A stretch of DNA of 14,682 nucleotides from Candidatus Tenderia sp. Lineage in GTDB: Bacteria > Pseudomonadota > Gammaproteobacteria > Tenderiales > Tenderiaceae. The stretch spans positions 1-14,682 of the forward strand of contig JANOSY010000065.1 in assembly GCA_031416075.1 (NCBI GenBank), given 5' to 3'. The translations under genes were made by a program, and so were the position numbers. Under the pieces are notes generated by a model. It was not told the origin of the DNA and ran no database searches. It worked only from the letters and a program-made list of their open reading frames with translations. Positions 1 to 13,094 of this stretch are shown piece by piece; position 1 is the stretch's first letter; the number at the start of each line of letters is the position of its first letter.

Positions 1-206
1 ATGGAACCCAGCGTGCGTATTGCATTATGGCCCGAGCTAATCGTATAGCTCACGTAGAGGCCGGATAGATACACGCAATCTTTACCCTGAGGACAAAAGT
101 TCAATCTTCTCCTTGCAAAACGGGAGGAGTCCATAGATACAGGGCTAGAGGAGAATTCAGTTGTGCGGTTTTTCCGAACAACCGCCGCTGACGGCAAGCA
201 CAGAGG

Positions 207-235
207 TTGCATGAGAGTTTATACTAATTTATTAT
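207..235 (+). promoter_or_regulatory. Putative sigma70 promoter of the ATPase gene (TTGCAT-17 bp-TATTAT)
   Basis: TTGCAT at 207-212 and TATTAT at 230-235 with a 17 bp spacer, about 42 nt upstream of ATG 278. The region is AT-rich, so alternative -10 boxes exist. Confidence 0.35.
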
Positions 236-272
236 CCATTCTATGTATAAATGGATATAAATAGGTATAACT
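216..272. promoter_or_regulatory. Long imperfect AT-rich inverted repeat, candidate operator
   Basis: Core TATCCATT (233-240) and AATGGATA (249-256), extending outwards with few mismatches or gaps to AGTTTATAC... / ...GTATAACT. Ends 5 nt before the ATPase start codon. Confidence 0.5.
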
Positions 273-277
273 AGACC

Positions 278-1462
278 ATGGATCCCATCAAAAACCCTTT
301 TTCTCCCGGCGCTGGTTCGCCACCTCCCGAGTTGGTGGGGCGAGACTCTGTTCTTGAACAAGCGCGCATTCTGTTAGGTAGAGTGAAACAGAGAAAATCT
401 GAGAAAAGTATGCTGCTGACCGGCCTACGCGGGGTAGGCAAAACTGTGCTGCTAAACGAAATCAAACGCATGGCGGACGGCGATGGATACCGCACCATTT
501 CTATCGAGGCACACGAAGGAAAAGCATTGGGCTCGCTGATTGCTCCATATTTGCGGAGCCTTCTTTATGATCTGGATCGGATTGCCGGAACCGGAGACAA
601 GGTCAAGCGCGGCTTGGCTGTGTTACGCAGCTTTATCGGTGCGCTCAAGGTTACGGTGGGCGATGTCAGCATCGGGTTGGACATTGACCCGGAGAAGGGA
701 TCGGCTGATAGCGGTGATTTGGAAATTGACCTGCCCAATCTCTTCGTCGCAATCGGCGAAGCAGCAGAGGATCGCAAGAGCGCAGTGGCTATCTTCATTG
801 ATGAGATTCAATACTTCAGCAAGAAGGAGTTGGGCGCACTGATCATGGCTATGCACAAGGTTCAACAGCTTCAGCTGCCTCTGGTATTGCTGGGTGCAGG
901 ACTACCTATCCTTCCCGGACTGGCAGGTGAATCAAAGTCTTATGCCGAGCGGCTTTTCAACTTCCCAAATATCGGCGCACTCTCGCAAGAAGACACTGCA
1001 AAAGCATTGCAAGAACCCGCACAAGAGGCAGGAGTCGCTTTTGAGAGTGAAGCGTTGGATGAGGTTTTTCATCTGACCAAGGGGTATCCCTATTTTCTTC
1101 AGGAGTGGGGCTACGTAGCTTGGAATTTAGCAACAACAAATCCAATTACGTTGCAGGTTGTCCGGGATGCCAAGAAGGCTGTTATCCTACGTCTCGACGA
1201 GAATTTTTTCCGGGTGCGTTTTGATCGTCTGACGCCAAGTGAAAAGAATTTTTTACGAGCAATAGCAGAGCTTGGGTCGGGTGCGCATCGTACAGGGGAC
1301 ATCGCTGATATCCTCAAAGTTAAAGTTACCAGTCTCGGCCCTGTCCGAGCCAAGCTGATTAACAAAGGGATGATCTATAGCCCTGCGCACGGCGACATGG
1401 ATTTCACTGTTCCGCTCTTTGATGATTTTATGATCCGCGCGATACCAACATTTAAACGGTAA
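278..1462 (+). CDS. AAA+/STAND-like ATP-binding protein (AAA_16 / archaeal-ATPase type) with probable C-terminal winged helix
   Basis: 394 aa. N-terminal NPFxPG...LVGR motif, Walker A GLRGVGKT, Walker B IFIDEIQ, GYPYFLQ (GxP) motif, and a C-terminal wHTH-like segment (TGDIADILKVKVTSLGPVRAKLINKGMIY). Confidence 0.85.
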   Translation: MDPIKNPFSPGAGSPPPELVGRDSVLEQARILLGRVKQRKSEKSMLLTGLRGVGKTVLLNEIKRMADGDGYRTISIEAHEGKALGSLIAPYLRSLLYDLDRIAGTGDKVKRGLAVLRSFIGALKVTVGDVSIGLDIDPEKGSADSGDLEIDLPNLFVAIGEAAEDRKSAVAIFIDEIQYFSKKELGALIMAMHKVQQLQLPLVLLGAGLPILPGLAGESKSYAERLFNFPNIGALSQEDTAKALQEPAQEAGVAFESEALDEVFHLTKGYPYFLQEWGYVAWNLATTNPITLQVVRDAKKAVILRLDENFFRVRFDRLTPSEKNFLRAIAELGSGAHRTGDIADILKVKVTSLGPVRAKLINKGMIYSPAHGDMDFTVPLFDDFMIRAIPTFKR

Positions 1463-1523
1463 CCATCACCTTGGATTTCCGCATTGTCGACACCTTTACT
1501 GGCAACTTGATAAGGCGCACTAA

Positions 1524-1660
1524 GTAGGGCGTCAATGCCCAATACACTCGCTCCGCTCGCGGGGCAGGCTCTAAGCAGAGCGTATTACGCCGAATGAAGC
1601 ACGCTTGGTGGGTTACGCCAAAAAACGGCTCTTGTACCCTTCAGGGTGAACCCCCTCTAC
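1524..1660. repeat. Degenerate hybrid GTAG-type REP doublet (REPIN-like) with two internal mini-insertions
   Basis: Begins GTAGGGCGT (1524) and ends CTCTAC (1660). Left-arm palindrome GGCGT(C)AAT...ATTACGCC. Right arm shares GCTTGGTGGGTTACG (1603-1617) exactly with 11493-11507. Confidence 0.65.
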
Positions 1661-1679
1661 ATTGAATGTTGGTTCTTTC

Positions 1680-1746
1680 TGGCCATTACTGCTCCCCCAC
1701 CTCCAGCGTCTGCATCTCATACAGATGTCTATAGACCCCTTCCATC
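1680..1746 (-). repeat. Orphan copy of the mdlB 3' end (direct repeat of 5562-5628); encodes MEGVYRHLYEMQTLEVGEQ*
   Basis: Manual alignment gives 61/67 identity to 5562-5628: 4 synonymous changes, 1 CAG/TAG change before the shared TAA, and 1 change after the stop. Confidence 0.95.
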
Positions 1747-1959
1747 TGTTCCCTTCATCCATTTTGATACCGGAGCGCCGTGGCAGAGCTTTTGTGCGAT
1801 CACGGCGCAGTGCCTTAATTGCTCAATGGTCAGGCAGGGCCATGCGCCTCATCCCCAGTTGTTGGTGGCTGTTCAAATTTTCGTGAGGCGCTGAAACGGT
1901 TACGCGCGCCCACGGTGGTTGCGTTACCATGGGTTGCGATTTAATAGGATGATGGGCGC

Positions 1960-4539
1960 ATGGAAAATAACTTGCCGGAATTGACAGAAGAAAATTTTAA
2001 AAAGCTGAGCCAGCCAGCCTGTGTGGTGTTTGCCTGGCGTGCGGCTATGCGGGTGTTGCCTGTGTTGGGTGGGCAAGAGGGTAATCTAGATTTTTGGGCT
2101 GAGGCTGATAGGCGTAGGAATTTGGCAGCAGTGTTGGCGGCTTTGGATGAGGTGTTGCCATGGATTGGTTTTGTGGAAGGCGGGATCAGTAAATATGTGG
2201 CGGCTTCTGTTGTCGATGCAGTTGCTAATGTTATTCCCGCAGGCTACGTCTCTTACACCTATGCGGTTGGCGCTGCTGTAGCCGCTGTTTCTGGTGATGC
2301 TTATGAAGCCTATAAATGCGCTGCATTCACTTCTACGGTACGTCGAGGTGACACCCTCGCCGATTTTGTCTTTGGTGCATATGCTGACGCTGCCAAAAAC
2401 GTGATGCAATGGGATCTATATCTGTTATTACAGTGGCAAAAGGCTACGCCAACTTGTGAGGTTGTTTTTGCCCCATTGTGGCAAATAGCGGAGGGAGGTG
2501 GTTTGCCTGACGGGTGGTTGGAAATTACTGATCGCTGGCAACAGGTGATGCGGGAGTATGGCCACTCAGATTTTTGTGACTCCTATCTGGGATTGCTGGA
2601 GGGGAGGCCGTGGGATGTGGAGGCGAGCCTGAGGCGGTTTGAGGATTGGATTGCATCGCGTAAAGACAATAAGCACGGTGAATCTGGTGATGTTGAGGGT
2701 ATTACGATAACAGAGAAACCAGAGACGATTACTCTTGTTCTTGATGATCTGGTAGCTCAAGCCTCCGTTGAAGATGTGGAAATGTCAGTTGGAAGCAAGC
2801 CTGTGGCCAAAAAGTCGAGCGCAGGTATCGCTACTGCACTTGCCGATGAGCCATCCAAACATGACAGCCTGGGGCGTACCCCTATCGTCAACACCTTGGC
2901 CAATATGCTGGCCTCACCAGAACAGACGCTGCCCATGACCATCGCCCTGTTGGGAGACTGGGGGGCGGGTAAGAGTTCAATGATCGATCAGCTCCAGTTG
3001 CAGCTAAACAAGCTGATAAAAGATTTTGATAATTCGTGGACGCTGGTGAGTGAGCGAGATAGAAACGAACCATTGCGGCCATACGCTTATATCCACGCCA
3101 CCTTCAACGCCTGGGAATATGAGAAGACCGACAACATTCGTGCAGGGCTGGCTCAGGAGGTGGTGAATGGGCTGGTTGATGATATGTATATCTGGCAGAA
3201 ATTTGGGTTCAGCTTTTTGAACGCATGGTGCCAACACCGCTGGCAGTTTGTCTGGAGTGTGTTGGGGGTGGTGGTGACGGCATTGGCTGTGCTTTATGGT
3301 GTGAGCAGTAACGACCTTGGCTTAAACACATTTTCCGAAACCTTTTTGGGGGTAGGAGCGGCGGCGGCGATGTCATTTGTGTTGTACAAGTCGTGGAAGA
3401 CGGCAGTCAACATTCTCGAACACCCTTTGGTCAGTCGGTTGCAAACCTATCTGAAACTACCCAGTTATGGTGAGCATCTGGGGCTGGTGCCGGTGATCAA
3501 GCAGCAGATTGAAACACTATGCAAACTGCGCTTGAAGGGACTCTATCGCCATCGTCTGCTGGTGGTGGTGGATGATCTGGATCGCTGTAGCCCGGAGTGC
3601 ATTACCGAGACACTGGATGCCATTCGTTTGGTGATGAACCTGAAGGATGTGGCGGTGTTGATCGCTATTGATGACCGGGTGGCCTTTCGTGCGGTGGCGG
3701 AGCATTACAAGAAGCTGAGTGATCATGATCGCCCCAGTGCTGCCATAGCCCGCGATTATTTGGGCAAGATTATTCAGTTGCCTATTAATCTGCCTAAACC
3801 TGCTGCGGGTGATCTGAGCGGCTTTATAGCAAATCAACTATTTCCACAGATTGAAGCCGACTCGGTTGATGGTTCGGCCGTAGCACCGGTGGTGGAGGCT
3901 TCACTGCCTCATGTTTCTTCGTCATCTGCTGAACCTAAAGATGAGAAGCAGAAACCGTTGCCAGTCACAGGGAGCTTGCCCGAGGAGGATGAGCCGGATG
4001 TGGCGAAGTCAGTACGTGCAAAGTCGAAACGTTCGATGGCTGAAATGCAATCTCTGATGGTGGATTTGCGAGAAGAGCTTGAACAGTTTCAAAAGCTGGC
4101 GCGTGATCTGGATTTCACCAATCCCCGGCAGCTGACCCGTCTAAAAAACTCCTACCGCGTTTTAAAAGGGATCAACCATCTTTCGGACAGAGAGGATAGC
4201 TCGATTGAGCGTCGTGGTTTGATGTTGGGGATGTTCTGGGCTGAATATCTTTTTCAGTTTCCGTTGGAGAATAAGGTTCTGCCTGAGCAGGGGCGGCGCC
4301 ATATTGAGTTGGCGCTGCTGGATGCAATAGCTAAAGAATCCGTGCCCGTGGTCCCAGTGATAAAAAATATGAGCGATGACTTTAGTGACTGGTTACAAGT
4401 GCCGTTTGAGGGGAAGTCGAGACGTTTGTATTTTGAGTTGATGCAGCGTGTCTCTGTGACGGTGCTTTCCAGTGCTGAGGGTGGTTTGTTGTTGAGTCGC
4501 GAGGCGATGGATCGTTACAAGAGTATGAAGGCTGAGTAG
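1960..4539 (+). CDS. KAP family P-loop NTPase with two TM helices and an uncharacterised N-terminal domain
   Basis: 859 aa. D(S)LGR start motif, Walker A ALLGDWGAGKSS, FNAWEY, two hydrophobic segments inside the NTPase domain, Walker B LLVVVDDLDRC, YLGKIIQLP and NPRQL motifs, all typical of KAP NTPases. Confidence 0.92.
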   Translation: MENNLPELTEENFKKLSQPACVVFAWRAAMRVLPVLGGQEGNLDFWAEADRRRNLAAVLAALDEVLPWIGFVEGGISKYVAASVVDAVANVIPAGYVSYTYAVGAAVAAVSGDAYEAYKCAAFTSTVRRGDTLADFVFGAYADAAKNVMQWDLYLLLQWQKATPTCEVVFAPLWQIAEGGGLPDGWLEITDRWQQVMREYGHSDFCDSYLGLLEGRPWDVEASLRRFEDWIASRKDNKHGESGDVEGITITEKPETITLVLDDLVAQASVEDVEMSVGSKPVAKKSSAGIATALADEPSKHDSLGRTPIVNTLANMLASPEQTLPMTIALLGDWGAGKSSMIDQLQLQLNKLIKDFDNSWTLVSERDRNEPLRPYAYIHATFNAWEYEKTDNIRAGLAQEVVNGLVDDMYIWQKFGFSFLNAWCQHRWQFVWSVLGVVVTALAVLYGVSSNDLGLNTFSETFLGVGAAAAMSFVLYKSWKTAVNILEHPLVSRLQTYLKLPSYGEHLGLVPVIKQQIETLCKLRLKGLYRHRLLVVVDDLDRCSPECITETLDAIRLVMNLKDVAVLIAIDDRVAFRAVAEHYKKLSDHDRPSAAIARDYLGKIIQLPINLPKPAAGDLSGFIANQLFPQIEADSVDGSAVAPVVEASLPHVSSSSAEPKDEKQKPLPVTGSLPEEDEPDVAKSVRAKSKRSMAEMQSLMVDLREELEQFQKLARDLDFTNPRQLTRLKNSYRVLKGINHLSDREDSSIERRGLMLGMFWAEYLFQFPLENKVLPEQGRRHIELALLDAIAKESVPVVPVIKNMSDDFSDWLQVPFEGKSRRLYFELMQRVSVTVLSSAEGGLLLSREAMDRYKSMKAE

Positions 4540-4568
4540 GCCTGGGTGTTTTCCCCTCCTTGAAGGAG

Positions 4569-4615
4569 CAAATTAAAGGGATCCAAATTAAAGGGGTCAG
4601 CTTCGCATTTTTTTG
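4569..4615 (+). repeat. Tandem CAAATTAAAGGG x2 followed by GGGGTCAGCTTCGCATT (copy 1 of a 16 bp direct repeat)
   Basis: CAAATTAAAGGG at 4569 and 4584. GGGTCAGCTTCGCATT (4594-4609) matches GGGTCAGCTACGCATT (5471-5486) at 15/16. Confidence 0.6.
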
Positions 4616-4625
4616 AGCCAGCGAG

Positions 4626-4656
4626 GTAGCCCGCATGAAGTGAAACGCAATGCGGG
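4626..4656. repeat. Single GTAG-type REP hairpin between the convergent KAP and toxin genes, running into a G11 tract
   Basis: GTAG + CCCGCAT...ATGCGGG palindrome. G run at 4654-4664. Confidence 0.6.
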
Positions 4657-4677
4657 GGGGGGGGTGGTTTGTGGTGG

Positions 4678-4977
4678 CTACGGTTGGCGCGGAATCTCTG
4701 CCGCTTGCAAATCCCGTCTCTTGTGGATTACCGCCAAAATATCGATGTGGGTGGTATTGATCTCGTAGAGAATGCGATAGGAGTACAGCGATAATTCCCG
4801 AACGCGCTCTTCGTCGAACTCTGGCACTTTTCGCCCTAAGCGGGCCAGTTCATCAAGCAAGAGTGTTTTGCGTACCAGTGCATCCGATACGCGCTTGGCG
4901 TAGAGTGGTGAATCTTGGGCGATGTAATCGTGAATGTGACGAAGCTGGGTTAAAGCATGGTGAGTCCACCTCACCAT
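4678..4977 (-). CDS. Type II toxin, RelE/ParE superfamily (ParE-like)
   Basis: 99 aa. VRWT..AL..L..I.DYIAQDSP..A, GRKVPE...VREL..YSYRILY, ILAVIH.RRD pattern. Confidence 0.9.
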   Translation of the reverse strand: MVRWTHHALTQLRHIHDYIAQDSPLYAKRVSDALVRKTLLLDELARLGRKVPEFDEERVRELSLYSYRILYEINTTHIDILAVIHKRRDLQAAEIPRQP

Positions 4978-5150
4978 GATTGAATATCCCGTAACACCTG
5001 GTCGGCGGGAGTGACGTTTCCTTTTTCGGCATCTTCCTGGCCACGGCGAATATTTTCCAGTACATAGAGGCGATACATGATCTCTTCCATGTCCGCGTCT
5101 TCGGGCAGGTTGGTAATGACATTGATGGCTTCTTGCTTCAGGGGTTCCAT
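4971..5150 (-). CDS. Cognate antitoxin (59 aa, acidic)
   Basis: ATG at 5150 with AAGGAG SD upstream. LPEDADMEEIMYRLYVLENIRRG..D..G motif. Stop overlaps the toxin start. Confidence 0.85.
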   Translation of the reverse strand: MEPLKQEAINVITNLPEDADMEEIMYRLYVLENIRRGQEDAEKGNVTPADQVLRDIQSW

Positions 5151-5339
5151 AGCAGACTCCTTAAAATGGGATGAATAAATCGTTCTTGGGTCTTGCGGCC
5201 TGGACCGAGTGGGGTACACGCGGCCTATTATGAAATATTTTGCAAAGAATTACTGGTTCCAATTTTCAATATGGACAAATGCAAGGCGTTACACACCTGC
5301 TTGACACGTTGGGGATCTCAAAGCCCCTGGGCCTCATGG

Positions 5340-5459
5340 GCAACCGCAACGCTTATCAACAGGCTCAGCCAGTCCACCTGCTATGACGCCATCGGCAATC
5401 TTAAAAAGATGCGCGATGTCCAAGGCAACATTACCCAATTCAGTTATGACACCTTTGGG
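5340..5459 (+). pseudogene. YD/RHS-repeat gene relic
   Basis: Translates as ...STCYDAIGNLKKMRDVQGNITQFSYDTFG (two YDxxG units at RHS spacing), cut off at the GGGTCAG tandem. No credible start. Confidence 0.6.
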
Positions 5460-5486
5460 TCAGGGGTCAGGGGTCAGCTACGCATT
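5457..5486 (+). repeat. (GGGTCAG)x3 + CTACGCATT (copy 2 of the 16 bp direct repeat)
   Basis: Three tandem 7-mers at 5457-5477. 15/16 match with 4594-4609. Confidence 0.6.
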
Positions 5487-5561
5487 ATATTTTGGAAAAC
5501 TGTGAACGGTCGCTTTCAGTTGGCGCAGCCGTTTATGATTCCTGGCCCGATGGACCGCAAT

Positions 5562-5628
5562 TGGCCGTTACTACTCTCCAACCTCCAGCGTCTGCATCTC
5601 ATACAAATGTCTGTAGACCCCTTCCATC
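5562..5628 (-). repeat. Active mdlB 3' end, partner of the 1680-1746 repeat
   Basis: 61/67 identity by manual alignment. Confidence 0.95.
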
Positions 5629-7310
5629 CCCAGCAGCTCGTTGTGGCTGCCGTGCTGCACCAGTTCACCGTGGTTCAACACCAAAATCTGGTCAGCCTTT
5701 TCGATGGTGGAGAGGCGGTGGGCGATGACCAGCAGGGTGATCTCGCCGCGCAGTTGCATCAGTGCAGTTTGAATCTGTGCCTCGGTGTGGCTGTCGATGT
5801 TGGCGGTGGCTTCGTCGAGGATCAGCACTTTGGGTTTGTGGATCAGGGTGCGGGCGAGGGCGAGCAGTTGGCGCTGGCCGGTGGAGAGGTTGCTGCCACG
5901 TTCGTTCATGACGGTGTCGTAGCCTTGCGGCAGTCGCTGTACGTGTTCGTGCAGTCCGGCCTGTTTGGCGACCTGTTTGATCGCGGCGTCGCTGAAGGGT
6001 TGGCCCATGGTGATGTTGTCGCGCACGCTGCTGTTGAAGATGAAGGGGTCTTGCTGAACGATACCGACCTGCTGACGTAATACCTCTTCGCTGAAGCTTT
6101 CCAGTGAATGGCCGTCGATGCGAATCTCACCCTGCTGTGGCGCGTAGAAACGCAGCAGCAGTTGGGTGAGGGTGCTTTTGCCGCTGCCGGTGTGGCCGAT
6201 GATGGCGTGGAACTGGCCGGCGGGGATGGTGAAGGTGACGTTTTTGATGACGTTTTGTGTGTCGTCGTAACTGAAATGGAGGTGGCGGAATTCGATTTTG
6301 CCACTGTGGATGCGGGCATCGGCACGGCGTGCGGGGGTGCTGTTGTCGCTGTCGAGCAGGGTGAAGACACGTTCACCGGCGACGATGGCCTGCTGGTAGA
6401 GGCTGAGGCGCTGGGTGATTTCGACCAGTGGTTCGGAGAAACGTCCGAGGTAGGTGACAAAGGCGTAGATGACGCCGATCTCCACCGGACTGCTGAGGGA
6501 TTGGTAACCAAAGCTGTAGAGCAGCCCGGCGAGCAGCGCCACCTGAATCATATCCACCAGTGGTCGCAGCAGTATGGAGTCGAGTTTGATGTTGCGTAGC
6601 CGTACCCGGTTGTGTTCGTTGCTAAGAGCGGTAAAGTCGCGGCGGAAGCGTGGCTCCTGGCCGAGCAGTTGCAGCACTTTGATGCCCTGGATGGTTTCGT
6701 GCAGCCGGGCGTTGATGTCGCTGAGCAGGGTGCGGGCCTGGTGGAAGATGGGGGCGCTGAGGCGCTGGTAGAGGTACATCAGCGCTGTGACCACCGGCAC
6801 AAACAGCAGGCAGATGATCATCAGCTGCCAGTCGAGCAGCGCCATGGCGATGAGTATGCCGAGAATGCGCATGATGTTCTGTATGAAGGTGCCAATGACG
6901 TTGACGTAGAGCTCTTTGATCGACTCGGTATCGTTGGTGATGCGTGAGATCAGGCTGCCAGTGGGGGTGCGGTCAAAGTAGCTCAACGGCATCGCCAGCG
7001 CCTTGGCAAATACCTGTTCCCGCAATGTCTGTACCGCGTGTTGGGCGATGAGGTTGAGGCGTACGGCCTGTAGGTAGTTGGTGCTGGCGGCCAGGATCAT
7101 AAAAAAGAGGTAGGCGGCACCGATGGTGAGCATGGCGTTGGGTTGCCAGTGGCCGGGCACTACGTAGTCGTCGAGAAAGAGTTTGATCAGCAGGGGGCCT
7201 GCCACTTCGGCGGCGGTGGCGATGAGCAGCAGGATGAGTGCCTGACGCAGCAGTTTTTTGTCGCTCAGTCCGTAGCTGAGCAGACGCATGAAGGGGTGCT
7301 GTTTATCCAT
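5571..7310 (-). CDS. mdlB: MdlB-like ABC exporter (TMD + NBD)
   Basis: ATG 7310 (MDKQHPF), 579 aa. ABC membrane domain, Walker A GHTGSGKST, signature LSTGQRQ, Walker B LILDEATANID, H-loop IAHRLSTI. Lies downstream of an MdlA-like gene. Confidence 0.88.
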   Translation of the reverse strand: MDKQHPFMRLLSYGLSDKKLLRQALILLLIATAAEVAGPLLIKLFLDDYVVPGHWQPNAMLTIGAAYLFFMILAASTNYLQAVRLNLIAQHAVQTLREQVFAKALAMPLSYFDRTPTGSLISRITNDTESIKELYVNVIGTFIQNIMRILGILIAMALLDWQLMIICLLFVPVVTALMYLYQRLSAPIFHQARTLLSDINARLHETIQGIKVLQLLGQEPRFRRDFTALSNEHNRVRLRNIKLDSILLRPLVDMIQVALLAGLLYSFGYQSLSSPVEIGVIYAFVTYLGRFSEPLVEITQRLSLYQQAIVAGERVFTLLDSDNSTPARRADARIHSGKIEFRHLHFSYDDTQNVIKNVTFTIPAGQFHAIIGHTGSGKSTLTQLLLRFYAPQQGEIRIDGHSLESFSEEVLRQQVGIVQQDPFIFNSSVRDNITMGQPFSDAAIKQVAKQAGLHEHVQRLPQGYDTVMNERGSNLSTGQRQLLALARTLIHKPKVLILDEATANIDSHTEAQIQTALMQLRGEITLLVIAHRLSTIEKADQILVLNHGELVQHGSHNELLGMEGVYRHLYEMQTLEVGE

Positions 7311-7357
7311 TGATCTGCTGCTCAATCTGTTGGTAGCGGAACATCTGTGAGTACCAG
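7303..7357 (-). repeat. Orphan (displaced) mdlA 3' end, WYSQMFRYQQIEQQING*, overlapping the mdlB start
   Basis: 7313-7357 vs 7461-7505 is 38/45 identical, with 5 of 7 changes synonymous. Its TAA overlaps the mdlB ATG (ATGGATAA). Confidence 0.9.
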
Positions 7358-7361
7358 TGCT

Positions 7362-7425
7362 GTAGGGTGCGCTGTGCGCACCATGGATGGTTGGGGAGAA
7401 CGTTCGTGCGCACGGCGCACCCTAC
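7362..7425. repeat. GTAG-type REP doublet (REPIN-like)
   Basis: GTAGGGTGCGCTGTGCGCAC ... GTGCGCACGGCGCACCCTAC. Each half is a hairpin and the halves are inverted. Confidence 0.88.
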
Positions 7426-7441
7426 ATTCATTGCGCTGTGG

Positions 7442-9190
7442 CTAGATGTTGTCATGTTCAATCTCTTGCTCAATCTGTTGATACCTGAACATCTGTGCAT
7501 ACCAGCCATCGTGCTCCAGCAGCTGGGTATGGCGGCCACGCTCCTGAATGGTGCCGTGGTGCAGCACGATGATCTCGTCGGCATCGGTGACGGCGGAGAG
7601 GCGGTGACAGATGATGATGTTGCTGCGGCCTTGGCGTGCCGCTTTCAGGTGGTTGAGGATGGTCCGTTCGGTGCCCATGTCGACGGCAGAGAGCGCGTCA
7701 TCCAGCATCAGTACTGGCGGATCGAGCAGCAGGGCGCGGGCGATGGCGATGCGCTGCTTTTGGCCGCCAGAGAGGGTGATACCCCGTTCACCTACTAATG
7801 TATTGTATTGCTGTGGGAAGGCGAGGATGTCGCTGTCAATGCAGGCGAGGGCGGCGGCGGCACGGATTTCGTCAAGGGTGGCCTCGGGACGACCCAGGGC
7901 GATGTTCTCTGCGAGGGTGACGGAGAAGAGAAAGGGGTCTTGTGGCACCACACCAAACTGGTTGCGTAGCAGTGGCAGTGGATAGTGGTGCAGTGGCTGA
8001 CCGTCGATGCTGATCTGTGCCGCATCATCCTCATACTGGCGTAGCAGTAGATTGATGAGGGTGCTTTTACCGCTGCCGGTGTGGCCGACGATGCCAAAGG
8101 TGGCACCGGGCGGAATGGTGCAGTGGATCTGCTGCAGGGCGTGGTGTTCGCTGCCGGGATAACGGAACTGTGCGATCGCCATGTCGATCCGGGTGGTGGC
8201 GGGGGCAGACAGGGTGCCGTGGTCGCCAATCTCGGGGGCGGTATTAAACAGCTCATCAATGCGGGTATGGGCGGCGCTGCCACGCTCCAGCAGGTTAAGG
8301 GTCCAGCCGTAGGCAAACATCGGCCAGATGAGATAGCCCAGATACATGGTGAAGGTGGTGAGTTCGCCAACGGTGAGTTCGTCCTGATGGATCCACCAGG
8401 CACCACCACCCACGGTGAGCATAAATGAGGTACCGACGGTGACAAAGATGGTGGGGTCATATTTGGCCTCAACCTTGGCGACCTCCAGATTGGCGCGGCT
8501 CACCTCGGAGGTGACCGCGCTGTAGCTCGCCAGTGTCTGTGGCTGTTGGCCAAAGGCCTTGATGAGACGGATGCCAGAGATGCTCTCCTGGGTTTTGTCG
8601 TTAAGCAGGCTGAACTGGCGCTGCGCTTCGGTAAAGGTGTCGTGCATCTGGTTGCCAAAGTGCCACATAAAATAACCCATGATGGGCCAGGGCAGCAGTG
8701 CCAGCAGGGTGAGCTTCCAGCTCATCATCACCGCCATCACCAGCAGCACAACCAGGCCGGTAATCACCCCGTCTACCAGCGCCAGTATCGCCTCACCGGC
8801 AGTCATTTCCACCGCCGTGACATCGTTGGTGGCGCGCGCCATCAGGTCACCGGTATTATGGTGCTGGAAAAAGGCCGGGGCCATGAGTGTCAGGTGGTCA
8901 TAGATACGGCTGCGGAGCAGTGCCGCCAACCGGTATGATGCACCGTAGAGCTGTCGCCGCCAGAGGATGCGTAACAGGTAGACCAGCACCCCTACACCCA
9001 GGAGTAGCGCGATGTCGAGTAGCAGGTCGTTGAGGGTAAGACGCTGTTGTGCCACGGCATCCACTATCCGTCCGGTGACCCAGGGCGGCACCATGATCAG
9101 CCCGGCGATGGCCAGCAGTGCAGCAAAAGAGATGCCGTAACTGCGCCACTCTAAACGAAAAAACCAGCGGAGTTTGAGGAGGATACGCAT
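7442..9190 (-). CDS. mdlA: MdlA-like ABC exporter (TMD + NBD)
   Basis: ATG 9190 (MRILLKLRWFFRLEWRSY, resembling the MdlA N-terminus), 582 aa. GDLMARATND, GHTGSGKST, LSGGQKQR, LDDALSAVD motifs. Confidence 0.9.
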   Translation of the reverse strand: MRILLKLRWFFRLEWRSYGISFAALLAIAGLIMVPPWVTGRIVDAVAQQRLTLNDLLLDIALLLGVGVLVYLLRILWRRQLYGASYRLAALLRSRIYDHLTLMAPAFFQHHNTGDLMARATNDVTAVEMTAGEAILALVDGVITGLVVLLVMAVMMSWKLTLLALLPWPIMGYFMWHFGNQMHDTFTEAQRQFSLLNDKTQESISGIRLIKAFGQQPQTLASYSAVTSEVSRANLEVAKVEAKYDPTIFVTVGTSFMLTVGGGAWWIHQDELTVGELTTFTMYLGYLIWPMFAYGWTLNLLERGSAAHTRIDELFNTAPEIGDHGTLSAPATTRIDMAIAQFRYPGSEHHALQQIHCTIPPGATFGIVGHTGSGKSTLINLLLRQYEDDAAQISIDGQPLHHYPLPLLRNQFGVVPQDPFLFSVTLAENIALGRPEATLDEIRAAAALACIDSDILAFPQQYNTLVGERGITLSGGQKQRIAIARALLLDPPVLMLDDALSAVDMGTERTILNHLKAARQGRSNIIICHRLSAVTDADEIIVLHHGTIQERGRHTQLLEHDGWYAQMFRYQQIEQEIEHDNI

Positions 9191-9413
9191 AGAAGTGGTG
9201 AGCCAGATTGTGTGTACTGTGGGGCCATTGTACAAAATAATGCCCCTTTTTTGTGACGGGTTGACTGTTCAGAAGCCTCTGGCTCAAGTAGTGTGCACGG
9301 TTATGGCTGTGAGTGGGTCTCATCGCCCACGGTTTTGCGATGGTGTTATAAATTGACATTGGCAAAGTGGTTGAAGCAAAACCAGAAATCAAAGAGAGTC
9401 TGCTGTTCTCAAT

Positions 9414-10502
9414 ATGAATATTGTTGCCCCCCATTCATCTTCTCGCAGTGGTTGGATTTTAGCCGGAACATTGTTGATATCACTGCTGCTGCATGTATGG
9501 CTGCTGTTTATGCCGCAGATCCATCTGGCACTGTTTCCTGACGCCAAACCGGTAGAGACGGCGACAGACCTGGTCTCCATGCTTAAGGTGCGGATTGCCG
9601 CGCCTGCGCCTGAGGTGCCTGTGCCGCCACCGGTAGCCCCTAAACCCAAACCAGCGCCGGTTAGCAATGTGGCTGGCCCGTCACTGGTTGCGCCCGATGC
9701 CCCACCACCCCGTGTGCCAGAGGTAAAAGAGGAGGAGGTTGCTGTTGAGGATGTTGTGCCTGCAGCAGAGCCAGAACCGGCTGTGGACGAACCTCTGCCC
9801 AATCCAGCACCGGTGGTACCTGCAGTGGTGCCGGAACCGGTAGCCGCTGAGTCCTATCCGCCGCTCAAGCTGACCGTTAACTATTCGCTTTTTAAGGGTA
9901 AAAACGGGATCAAGATCGGCAAGATTGTCCACACTTGGGATATCAAAAATGGTCAATATGTGATTGCCAGTGTGGTGGAGTCGGCGGGTCTGGCCCGTTT
10001 TCTCACCAGTGAGATGATTATCCAGACCAGCCAAGGGCGGATCACCGCCAACGGCCTGGAGCCGGAGAGTTACTGGGAGCAGCGTGGCCAGAAGGCTGAC
10101 AGAACTTACTACGCCACCTTTGACTACACCAATAAAACATTGACCTATGGCCGTGTTACGGAGGCGACAACGGTGCCGCTGCCACCGGGCACCCAGGATC
10201 AGCTCTCCTTTATATATCAGTTTGGGCTGAAGGCACCGTTTAGCGGTACGCTACAGTTTTCTATGGCCACAGGCCGGAAGCTGGGTGTTTATAACACAGA
10301 GGTGGTGGGGGAGGTGTCGGTTAAGACCGGGTTGGGTGAGTTGCGCACCCTGCATCTGAGAAAAGTACGCAAACAGTCCAGTGACGATGATGTAGAGGTC
10401 TGGCTGGCGATTGATCACCAATATCTGCCAGCCAAGGTGCGGATCACCAACAGTGATGGCGATGTGCTGGAGCAAGTGGTGGAGGGGATCAGGAAGGAGT
10501 AG
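9414..10502 (+). CDS. DUF3108-like periplasmic protein with N-terminal membrane anchor and Pro-rich linker
   Basis: TM segment LLISLLLHVWLLF, PEP/PKP-rich linker, C-terminal domain with QDQLSFIYQ, GELRTLHL and EVWLAIDHQYLPAKVR motifs. Confidence 0.72.
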   Translation: MNIVAPHSSSRSGWILAGTLLISLLLHVWLLFMPQIHLALFPDAKPVETATDLVSMLKVRIAAPAPEVPVPPPVAPKPKPAPVSNVAGPSLVAPDAPPPRVPEVKEEEVAVEDVVPAAEPEPAVDEPLPNPAPVVPAVVPEPVAAESYPPLKLTVNYSLFKGKNGIKIGKIVHTWDIKNGQYVIASVVESAGLARFLTSEMIIQTSQGRITANGLEPESYWEQRGQKADRTYYATFDYTNKTLTYGRVTEATTVPLPPGTQDQLSFIYQFGLKAPFSGTLQFSMATGRKLGVYNTEVVGEVSVKTGLGELRTLHLRKVRKQSSDDDVEVWLAIDHQYLPAKVRITNSDGDVLEQVVEGIRKE

Positions 10503-10522
10503 GGAGGACAGTTCTGCCCTCC
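10503..10522. terminator. Short GC-rich hairpin between the convergent DUF3108 and metF genes
   Basis: GGAGGACAG-TT-CTGCCCTCC imperfect stem; no clear U tract. Confidence 0.3.
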
Positions 10523-10535
10523 GCTACTGTAGGAC

Positions 10536-11381
10536 TTAAAGCCCGAGGTTTTTCCACAGCGCCGTGGTCGGCCCGGTTTGGTTCATGGTGTAAAAGTGGA
10601 GTCCTGGTGCGCCGTTGTCGAGCAGCTTGCGCCCCAGTTCCGTGACCACCTCTTCACCAAAGGCGACAATGCTCTCCTTGTCATCCCCATAGGCCTCTAA
10701 CCGTTTACGCATCCAGCGTGGAATCTCGGCACCACACATGTCGGAGAAACGGGCCAGCTGGCTGTAGTTGGTGATGGGCATGATGCCGGGAATGATCGGC
10801 AGATCAACGCCGACCCTTTCGCAATCATCCACAAAGCGAAAATATGCGTCGCTGTTGTAGAAGTACTGGGTGATGGCGGCGTTGGCACCGGCCTTCACCT
10901 TGCGGGCGAAGTTTTCCAGATCCTTGCGGGCGTTGGGCGCTTGCGGATGGATCTCAGGGTAGGCGGCAACCTCGATATGGAAGTGGTCTCCGGTTTCGCT
11001 GCGGATAAACTCCACCAGCTCGTTGGCGTAACGCAGCTCACCCATGTCGCGCATGCCGGAGGGCATGTCACCACGCAGGGCAACGATACGCTTCACGCCG
11101 ATATTGATATAGCCCTGTAACAATTTACGGATGTTCTCTTTGGTAGAGCCGACACAGGAGAGGTGCGGCGCGGCACTGTAACCCTGTTCCTGGATCTCTT
11201 TGACGGTGTCGTACGTACCCTCCTGAGTACTGCCACCGGCACCAAAGGTGACGGAGAAGTAGGCCGGATTGAGTCGGGCCAGCTTTGTCAGTGTGGCGCG
11301 CAGGTTCTCGGCACCCTTGTCGGTCTTGGGTGGAAAGAACTCGCAGCTGTAGGATTTGGTGTATTTTTTTTGCGTGTTCAT
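10536..11381 (-). CDS. metF: 5,10-methylenetetrahydrofolate reductase
   Basis: SCEFFPPKT, FSVTFGAGGST, APHLSC, ALRGD, VAAYPE.HP, ITQYFY, LHFYTMN motifs. Context downstream of ahcY. Confidence 0.96.
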   Translation of the reverse strand: MNTQKKYTKSYSCEFFPPKTDKGAENLRATLTKLARLNPAYFSVTFGAGGSTQEGTYDTVKEIQEQGYSAAPHLSCVGSTKENIRKLLQGYINIGVKRIVALRGDMPSGMRDMGELRYANELVEFIRSETGDHFHIEVAAYPEIHPQAPNARKDLENFARKVKAGANAAITQYFYNSDAYFRFVDDCERVGVDLPIIPGIMPITNYSQLARFSDMCGAEIPRWMRKRLEAYGDDKESIVAFGEEVVTELGRKLLDNGAPGLHFYTMNQTGPTTALWKNLGL

Positions 11382-11405
11382 GCTTGGATGACCCTCGGAT
11401 CAAAT

Positions 11406-11536
11406 GTAGGGTGGGTTAAGCGTTTTTTGCTTAACCCACCGAGCGTTGCGCAGCAACACAAAACTTTTTTTCAATGTGTGCCTGTCGGCAGGGCTTGGTG
11501 GGTTACGGCGCAAACAGCGCGCCTAACCCACCCTAC
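11406..11536. repeat. GTAG-type REP doublet (REPIN-like) between ahcY and metF
   Basis: GTAGGGTGGGTTAAGCG...GCTTAACCCACC and GGTGGGTTACGGCGC...GCGCCTAACCCACCCTAC, inverted. Confidence 0.9.
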
Positions 11537-11555
11537 ATTGATTGGTTTGTGCCAG

Positions 11556-12974: not shown

Positions 12975-13007
12975 TGTCAATCCTCCAAATAGTAACAGTA
13001 GAGTATT

Positions 13008-13094
13008 GAGCGCCGTTGATCATCAGATGACCCGTACTTCGAGCCTGGCAGCGCCTCTGTTGTGGCTCTGTCGCAGCGCCCCTCGAAGTGCGGG
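13008..13094 (-). ncRNA. SAH riboswitch
   Basis: Minus strand reads CCCGCACTTCGAGGGGCGCTGCGAC...GCCAGGCTCGAAGTACGGG...CAACGGCGCTC, matching the SAH aptamer consensus (GAGGRGCGCTGC, CCAGGCTC, AACGGCGCTC pseudoknot). Lies directly upstream of the ahcY RBS. Confidence 0.93.

Follow-up and report, generated by a model that had tools for sequence, protein, structure and literature searches.

The window analysed here is a whole contig of 14,682 bp (G000:C65) from a Candidatus Tenderia sp. genome, G000 (3.49 Mb, 95 contigs). Two neighbouring genes for ABC transporters, mdlA and mdlB, each bear an insertion scar at the 3' end. The last codons of each gene recur downstream as a second, diverged copy, 38/45 identical for mdlA (repeat D9) and 61/67 for mdlB (repeat D1), as had been claimed in the original prediction made from the letters of the contig. 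The genome has at least seven scars of the mdlB type: besides mdlB itself, amtB, rapA, ada, hlyD and the genes for a SNF2 helicase and an alpha/beta hydrolase are marked in this way. To judge by what was inserted, the mdlA and mdlB events differ in kind: the mdlA insert is a gene-free doublet of repetitive extragenic palindromic (REP) sequences, and the mdlB insert is a gene-bearing island. We see about an even chance that the islands at mdlB and the six other genes were captured by host recombination of DNA that started with a homologous gene tail.

The genomes compared, four congeners among them, are metagenome-assembled. Genes were called by an open reading frame (ORF) heuristic, which gave 3000 non-overlapping ORFs of at least 100 aa in G000. 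Duplication edges were taken from local alignments and are therefore fuzzy. Pfam scans of cargo covered ORFs of at least 100 aa.

Tail duplication and inserted island at mdlB

The features of the mdlA/mdlB region are as follows:

1680-1746, minus strand: displaced orphan mdlB tail (MEGVYRHLYEMQTLEVGEQ, stop TAA at 1686-1688; repeat D1), followed by resident downstream DNA
1747-5561: inserted island of 3815 bp without a recombinase gene, absent from G003
1960-4539, plus strand: KAP-family P-loop NTPase of 859 aa, a defence-type single gene (Pfam KAP_NTPase 6.8e-32; PADLOC QatA 1.2e-27, PifA 4.5e-17)
4678-5219, minus strand: ParE toxin at 4678-4977 (Pfam ParE_toxin 7.2e-17) with an upstream small antitoxin ORF at 4971-5219
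5193-5519, plus strand: Rhs/YD-repeat scrap, an ORF fragment and not a gene (Pfam RHS_repeat 6.1e-5, 23.7 bits against a cut-off of 22)
5562-5628, minus strand: in-frame mdlB tail copy (MEGVYRHLYEMQTLEVGE, stop and 9 further nt; repeat D1)
5571-7310, minus strand: mdlB-type ABC transporter (ATG at 7310, stop TAG at 5571-5573; Pfam ABC_membrane 7.3e-47, ABC_tran 6.6e-35)
7303-7357, minus strand: displaced original mdlA tail (WYSQMFRYQQIEQQING, stop TAA at 7303-7305; repeat D9)
7361-7426: REP-type hairpin doublet, the sole "cargo" between the mdlA tail copies (inverted repeat I2)
7442-9235, minus strand: mdlA-type ABC transporter with permease and ATPase (longest start; present stop at 7442-7444; Pfam ABC_membrane 3.5e-38, ABC_tran 6.1e-30)
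7461-7505, minus strand: in-frame mdlA tail copy (WYAQMFRYQQIEQE), continued by IEHDNI and a stop (repeat D9, translation)

In the repeat search, D1 paired positions 1680-1746 with 5562-5628 over 67 nt. It spans the last 18 codons of mdlB, the stop and 9 nt beyond, and opens with 15 identical bases. Both tails code for the same 18 residues, and the stop of the in-frame copy stands one codon earlier than that of the orphan.

The comparison of mdlAB loci across relatives, which the original prediction had proposed, yielded an exact empty site. In G003 (91% DNA identity), window positions 138-1746 and 5562-11409 abut on one 67-nt copy. The orphan side runs on as G003-type DNA down to window position 138; the orphan tail matches the single G003 copy at 63/67 positions and the in-frame copy matches it at 59/67. 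The mdlB gene as a whole has 89-91% DNA identity to G001, G003 and G004. A single mdlB tail is followed in G001 by a Sel1-repeat protein gene, small ORFs and sbcB, and in G004 by a 121-aa ORF, a radical-SAM protein gene and sbcB, so the stretch 3' of mdlB is a variable spot. No orphan mdlB tail was seen in six further genera within the downstream DNA compared, which for one genus came to only 1.2 kb.

As predicted, the mdlB island holds cargo of a defence or toxin-antitoxin type, namely the QatA/PifA-like KAP NTPase together with ParE. The claim that no integrase or transposase lies between the copies also held: Pfam detected neither family in the three scanned ORFs of the mdlB island or in the mdlA insert, about 700 nt of the island being without assignment. 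An ordinary transposon or insertion-sequence event, with transposase, terminal inverted repeats and a target duplication of 2-14 bp, was rejected on the lack of a transposase family and on the diverged duplications of 45 and 67 nt.

A motif of 20-23 nt stands on either side of the ParDE cassette, at 4589-4614 and 5469-5491 (repeat D17). The more likely start of its antitoxin ORF is the ATG at 5150, and this ORF had no family match in Pfam. ParDE (4617-5165) is the sole part of the island with DNA relatives, which occur in 13 of 299 other genomes of the class (11 if G055 and G157, both flagged as unpublished, are left out), the best of them at 81% identity in another family. Since the rest of the island has no such relatives, this distribution suggests that ParDE may be an independently travelling toxin-antitoxin cassette nested in the mdlB island.

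The mdlA/mdlB junction

Repeat D9 (7313-7357 against 7461-7505, 45 nt) lies inside the last 21 codons of mdlA. The in-frame copy runs on as ...QEIEHDNI-stop. The displaced tail matches the single native junction of G004 and retains the native ATGGATAA overlap with the mdlB start; the two genes overlap by 8 nt. Between the copies, the arms of the REP hairpin (7361-7381 and 7406-7426, 21 nt each) are 95% complementary, with a DNA fold of -24.5 kcal/mol (z -6.6). REP hairpins had been placed next to the copies of both genes; this stood for mdlA. At mdlB, empty-site G003 shares the REP-like DNA that lies close to the orphan (about 1500-1640), so that this DNA pre-dates the insertion and is unrelated to it.

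The native mdlA/mdlB overlap without the doublet was found in G004, G015, G010 and six other genera. At the junction of G003 the REP doublet recurs with 78 nt identical, and on either side of it lies a duplication (59/61) in which the mdlB ATG is included. The REP together with the old mdlA tail (window 7297-7441 against 4128-4265 of the G003 locus L022) matches at 134/138 positions, the surrounding genes being about 91% identical, which points to either recent exchange or strong constraint. The G001 junction (locus L021, about 8400-8520) has two tandem REP doublets and an "IEHD"-type tail as in G000, and a stretch of similar length with little similarity left replaces the old mdlA tail.

Local duplication is the simplest reading of this junction. 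Arrival of the REP doublet in the 8-nt gene overlap would have been accompanied by a local duplication of some 60 nt that kept both genes intact, and only with such a duplication would both have survived. It would be a single, old event that took place in an ancestor of G000, G001 and G003 and that G004 lacks. The in-frame copy would then have been free to drop the embedded mdlB start and extend to a new stop, and the old copy would have been constrained for the mdlB start only. The copies would have drifted in G000 and G001, and in G003 would have been homogenised or still be fresh. The alternative, that an end consisting of the "IEHD" tail and the REP was imported, may also apply at mdlA: the in-frame tail of G000 shares the "IEHD" allele with G001, a point that counts against local duplication there.

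REP and REPIN elements are mobilised by RAYT (Y1/HUH) transposases. The mdlA/mdlB insert resembles REPINs in being a hairpin of two inverted REPs from a small family (eight exact GTAGGGTGCGC half-sites at about six loci of G000), and the genome has Y1_Tnp genes (eight hits). The long duplication is unlike REPINs, which are not known to make long target duplications, and unlike the other REP loci of G000, none of which (0/6) has long flanking repeats. A general mechanism of REPIN insertion with duplication was therefore rejected.

The duplications in MdlA and MdlB start 3 codons apart in a gap-free alignment of the two proteins, in agreement with the predicted distance of about 3 codons. The similarity is probably a coincidence. 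The proposal that one system hit the same motif in two paralogues was not supported, given that the mdlA insert is a REP doublet only and that its 59/61 flank in G003 includes the mdlB start.

A further element of 137 nt lies at 11403-11539, between metF and ahcY, and has 20-nt terminal inverted repeats (AATGTAGGGTGGGTTAAGCG...). The element occurs in G001 as well, and 22 nt of it are found again at 1603-1624. It resembles a member of a miniature inverted-repeat or REP family related to the REP at mdlA and mdlB.

Genome-wide screen for orphan gene ends

The last 75 nt (+10) of each of the 3000 genes were compared with the 10 kb downstream (Smith-Waterman, +2/-3). D1 scored 104 and D9 scored 55; opposite-strand controls reached at least 50 in 2/3000 genes and at least 60 in 1/3000. 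Scores of at least 40 were obtained for 22 genes downstream on the same strand, for 2 downstream on the opposite strand and for 14 upstream on the same strand. From 31 rows at a score of at least 34, eight were kept as orphan tails beyond inserted DNA. The 23 dropped rows were tandem paralogues whose "copy" was simply the end of the following gene (C92 twice, C14, C93 and C17:46027, among others), repeat arrays (C69, C57, C12), doubtful host ORFs (C67, C85, C28) and short or weak matches (C12:24154, C20, C39, C17:8370, C27, C50, C90, C91). The row on C28 belongs to a complete Rhs (2013 aa)-Imm8-DUF4304 module at G000:C28:11655-19130, which has direct repeats of 226 nt on both sides (170/226; indel of 39 nt).

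The genome-wide search that had been proposed thus added six genes to mdlA and mdlB. Duplications and cargo at the eight loci are as follows:

mdlB: duplication 61/67; KAP/PifA-like NTPase and ParDE (with the Rhs scrap)
amtB: duplication 172/184; DarT and DarG (PADLOC 2.3e-67 and 2.3e-142)
rapA: duplication 175/198; 538-aa dCTP deaminase (1.5e-156)
SNF2 helicase: duplication 171/208; DUF3800 protein
ada (AraC-MGMT): duplication 116/140, running 40 nt past the stop; HIT protein and three unknown proteins
alpha/beta hydrolase: duplication 77/84; Hcp and two small proteins
hlyD: duplication 192/232; one unknown protein
mdlA: duplication 38/45; REP doublet

The eight duplications are 45-232 nt long and 82-93% identical; they begin 58-228 nt before the stop and end between -19 and +40 nt of it. 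At mdlB and the six other genes they form direct repeats of the target 3' end with the host gene intact. No shared boundary motif was seen when the eight left edges were compared by eye, with no motif-finding program run. The number of identical bases before the first mismatch at these edges ranged from 2 to 15 nt, at positions that local alignment fixes only loosely.

In a mirror screen, 5' ends were compared with the DNA upstream of them; this yielded 20 hits of at least 50, 11 of them outside same-strand genes, and the corresponding comparison of 3' ends gave 20 hits, 15 of them outside same-strand genes. Inspection left one clear orphan 5' end with genes between the copies (C15:1805-2434, 198/217): 217 nt over the start of a 209-aa gene recur 1.4 kb upstream with two ORFs between them (G000:C15:167-381 and 1792-2008). 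The bias toward 3' ends is real, though not absolute. With tails searched out to the full length of the contig, no orphan tails were found between 10 and 100 kb downstream except one doubtful match (C90), which lacks the gene's last 54 nt.

Cargo and polymorphism of the sites

Cargo measures 1-3 kb at the six other loci, and islands range overall from 0.1 to 4 kb when the mdlA insert is included. Integrase and transposase families were absent from all 15 cargo ORFs scanned in G000 (three in the mdlB island and 12 elsewhere). In the congeners, none of 20 ORFs beside or beyond the same gene ends, comprising alternative cargo and some resident neighbours, matched an integrase or transposase family; among these ORFs are genes for NHL-, RCC1- and laminin-G-type proteins and an AAA_15/21 ATPase, plus residents such as sbcB. 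The search for RAYT and recombinase genes suggested in the original prediction did find candidates in G000, namely eight Y1_Tnp hits and six Phage_integrase hits (two Xer-like, one broken pair and two others). All lie away from the islands, and the suggested role of RAYT was not supported.

Several sites are polymorphic among congeners. The amtB site is empty in G001, G003 and G004, that is, in all three congeners with the locus, where both parts of the query align to a single copy with an overlap of 166-184 nt. The ada site is empty in G001. At the hydrolase, G002 and G004 have an empty site, and other cargo occupies it in G001 and G003, both of which share the final 140 nt in front of the orphan. 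Different cargo was also found at the rapA and SNF2 sites in G001 and G003. The hlyD cargo and its downstream DNA had no match in the five genomes searched. The presence of different cargo at the same sites without new orphans indicates that cargo is swapped once a site exists, as a double crossover in the flanks would do.

Divergence between copies and origin of the in-frame ends

The mdlA and mdlB pairs together show 13 differences, of which nine had been called synonymous. The recount was close, with eight synonymous codons, two residue-changing ones and the rest in or after the stop. The accompanying claim that both copies evolved as coding sequence was upheld by the full set and limited by two loci. 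Over the eight loci, 144 differences fall at codon positions 1, 2 and 3 in the numbers 32, 17 and 95 (chi-square against even use, p = 3e-16), and the changed codons comprise 92 synonymous and 39 non-synonymous ones. The cleanest loci are rapA (22 synonymous against 1 non-synonymous codon) and ada (12 against 2). With a stop or many replacements, the orphans of hlyD and SNF2 have decayed as well.

Polarity of the changes was judged with empty-site relatives as outgroups; hlyD was left out because paralogues blur its polarity. At ada, the in-frame copy has 22 derived changes and the orphan 2, with none ambiguous. Against G001, the in-frame ada gene matches at 568/600 positions upstream of the duplication and at 114/140 inside it (Fisher's test, 2e-6), the jump in divergence falls within 9 nt of the first base of the orphan, and the orphan itself matches G001 at 134/140. 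By this comparison, the in-frame end of ada is demonstrably imported, foreign from the duplication boundary onward. The in-frame end of mdlB is probably foreign too, with 5 changes derived in the in-frame copy, 1 in the orphan and none ambiguous (outgroup G003). The predicted arrival of a new 3' end together with cargo is borne out by insertion at sites that are empty in relatives and by the foreign end of ada; it is not supported at mdlA, where the insert is a REP doublet and local duplication fits.

Proposed mechanism and alternatives

Capture by host recombination, to which we gave about an even chance at mdlB and the six other genes, would proceed as follows. Donor DNA from a related lineage would present a homologous gene tail first and accessory genes after it. 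The donor tail would pair with the resident gene end, and the far end would be joined illegitimately at or near the same point, either by homology-facilitated illegitimate recombination or by Campbell-type insertion of a circularised fragment. The gene would keep a working end and gain cargo, the old end would be pushed downstream, and later cargo swaps would use the flanks as ordinary homology arms. With the joint at or near the start of donor homology, the foreign tract and the orphan would begin together, as they do at ada. The same capture model is proposed for type VI secretion system (T6SS) effector-immunity arrays and rhs orphans (PMC5361080) and for E. coli dimorphic loci (PMC2884548). 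ComEC and DprA are present in G000, but they also occur in 10-11 of 14 control genomes and are uninformative.

A number of observations weigh against capture of this kind. A foreign tract that starts where the orphan starts, as at ada, is also expected of a site-specific crossover at an attachment (att) core. Homeologous tails of 67-232 nt at 82-91% identity are poor RecA substrates, and homology-facilitated illegitimate recombination is, according to PMC5361080, orders of magnitude rarer than homologous recombination. Polarity was not uniform at the hydrolase (1 change derived in the in-frame copy, 3 in the orphan, 4 ambiguous) and at amtB (1, 4 and 7, respectively). The in-frame mdlB tail differs from G003 at 8/67 positions and the upstream gene at 68/600; as the tail is no more diverged than the rest of the gene, the 5:1 polarity at mdlB is only suggestive. 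A non-specific process would explain the excess of orphan 3' ends (8 against 1 clear orphan 5' end) only via selection. The search for a donor came up empty: a single-sequence scan of genome contigs with the KAP protein confirmed none of 20 pattern hits as a relative, and in the 299 other genomes of the class the island with its new tail had no DNA match apart from the ParDE part.

A bolder form of the capture model would make the tail itself part of the mobile unit. Small cassettes of defence, toxin-antitoxin or other accessory genes would travel with a homeologous copy of the host gene's last 15-75 codons as a homing arm and be inserted by host recombination; the direct repeat would then allow RecA excision as a circle and re-insertion, giving a self-perpetuating, integrase-free mobility at the at least seven loci of G000. 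We put this forward tentatively and regard it as doubtful.

Site-specific elements that have decayed or are non-autonomous are a possible but rather unlikely source of the islands. A tyrosine or serine recombinase targeting 3' ends, with a replacement gene end on its attP arm, would have been lost or would act in trans, as for cis-mobilizable elements (CIMEs). The layout is that of e14, where, according to PMC13626634, the host gene continues into the element and a pseudogene copy of its C-terminal part is found at the other end. The start of the foreign ada tract within 9 nt of the orphan start, the 15 identical bases that open D1 and the three non-Xer-like integrase loci of G000 also suit such elements. 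So does a 20-nt motif, ATGCGAAGCTGACCCCTTTA, which occurs at four sites in the genome (window 4589-4608 and 5469-5491, bracketing ParDE; G000:C55:3592-3611; G000:C66:33740-33759), all of them inside three orphan-tail islands and co-oriented with the host gene in 4/4 cases. The motif is rare, being found in 3/21 genomes searched, all of genus g1; its flanks are not conserved, and it stands at an island boundary at one of the four sites and so at the boundary of one island only. As an att site it is no more than a candidate. Site-specific integration would also have to contend with the lack of an integrase in the 15 cargo ORFs of G000 and the 20 congener ORFs, with eight different target genes, which would require many different recombinases, and with left edges at which no identical core or common motif was recognised, the first mismatch following after 2-15 nt. 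Moreover, the islands measure only 1-4 kb, and no tails at 10-100 kb, one doubtful match apart, mark larger elements.

Duplication in place at the time of insertion, through a long target duplication or replication template switching, followed by divergence and without any imported end, is unlikely as a general account. It fits the mdlA/REP junction, with its 59/61 duplication around an identical REP doublet in G003, and perhaps amtB. At amtB, the two copies hardly differ over the last 130 nt and have changes in common that relatives lack, which is consistent with gene conversion or with recent origin on the spot. The hlyD and SNF2 orphans, with their stop or many non-synonymous changes, look as decaying copies would. 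Elsewhere it is contradicted by codon positions and polarity. The share of third-position differences (95/144) exceeds even 0.45, a generous expectation for one constrained and one freely decaying copy (binomial test, p = 3e-7), and rapA has a single non-synonymous codon beside 22 synonymous ones. Derived changes are concentrated in the selected in-frame copy (22 against 2 at ada, 5 against 1 at mdlB), the opposite of decay.

A strain-chimeric metagenome contig, which the original prediction had named as a possible refutation, is suggested by the metagenomic origin of the relatives, by a window that is a whole 14.7-kb contig of low depth (3-5x in the Logan runs, of which contigs only were used, so that rare variants are beyond judgement) and by tail copies that differ like alleles, yet it is highly improbable, since independent contigs span every junction: with 0 mismatches, Logan contigs of another sample (run X2) cover 1684-2343 and 5020-5670 and so bridge 1746/1747 and 5561/5562, a contig of a different study (run X4) covers 6966-7519 with old tail, REP and new tail, separately assembled congeners have the same architectures (the mdlA junction in G003; the hydrolase and SNF2 orphans in G001 and G003), and cargo and gene interior have no common sequence able to mis-join an assembly graph.

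Comparison with known systems

There are precedents both for end replacement by integrating elements and for displacement of C-termini at toxin loci. Phage 21, like e14, brings a replacement end to icd. CIMEs are att-flanked islands without recombination genes that are mobilised in cis by a related integrative and conjugative element (ICE). Like them, the islands described here are bounded by direct repeats at a gene's 3' end and lack an integrase; CIMEs, however, share short identical att sites with a known ICE family, and here no such ICE, att core or helper was found.

The closest layout among integrating elements is that of e14 at icd of E. coli K-12, where icd runs into the element and icdC, a C-terminal pseudogene, stands at its far end. 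This prophage of 15 kb encodes its own integrase and is excised site-specifically upon SOS induction. In e14, according to PMC13626634, the replacement 3' end is borne by the element and is mostly synonymous, the resident end is displaced across the insert, and excision or recombination between the copies regenerates a chimeric gene, all as at the loci here. The islands of G000, in contrast, measure 0.1-4 kb and have no recombinase gene at any of the eight loci.

C-terminal displacement at rhs and contact-dependent inhibition (CDI) loci is said to have been described by Jackson in 2009. The loci of G000 share the layout of such displacement, with a new end followed by genes, an orphan old end and no recombinase. 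They differ in that the displaced 3' part at rhs, CDI and T6SS loci codes for a different toxin and the cargo is its immunity gene, whereas here the hosts are housekeeping genes (ABC transporter, amtB, rapA, ada) whose two ends code for identical or almost identical peptides, and the cargo has no relation to its host gene. In Kirchberger 2017 (PMC5361080), T6SS effector-immunity modules are displaced sequentially and homology-facilitated illegitimate recombination is proposed; a homologous stretch with new downstream genes pushes the old 3' region into an orphan without an integrase, and later homologous recombination shuffles the arrays.

A third comparison concerns sites at which a double crossover in the flanks swaps cargo between core genes, as reported in PMC5635113. 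Such sites resemble the present ones in holding small accessory or defence cargo between core genes without mobility genes, and in that congeners differ in cargo at one site (here rapA, hydrolase, SNF2 and mdlB). They have no duplicated gene end, unlike the loci here, whose orphan tails record a different founding event.

Other features of the window

The minus strand of the window carries metK, ahcY, metF, mdlA and mdlB (ORF list, Pfam). On the far side of the mdlB orphan lies the following gene, which is resident flank and not island:

278-1462, plus strand: AAA_16/STAND-like ATPase (Pfam AAA_16 1.2e-14)

It also adjoins mdlB in empty-site G003. An S-adenosylhomocysteine (SAH) riboswitch was identified at 13001-13090 on the minus strand, upstream of ahcY, the gene for S-adenosylhomocysteine hydrolase (Rfam RF01057, 58 bits against a gathering score of 37). 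No tRNA was found in the window.

Significance

A recognisable mobile element is lacking from many integration hotspots and defence islets, which leaves the arrival of their first gene to be explained. Orphan gene tails are a readable scar of such a founding event. The same scar at many housekeeping genes of one genome, with defence or toxin-antitoxin cargo and no recombinase, was not found in the literature, supplements aside. The loci described here indicate that a foreign gene end can arrive with cargo, at ada and probably at mdlB, and that this happens at housekeeping genes and not at toxin loci only. One genome can hold at least seven such scars, with cargo that includes DarTG, a dCTP deaminase and a PifA-like NTPase. 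For annotators, short 3' pseudogene fragments mark insertion boundaries, and the frequency of the scar can be counted across genomes by a simple screen. If host recombination alone is indeed responsible, it would provide a cheap and general route to defence genes.

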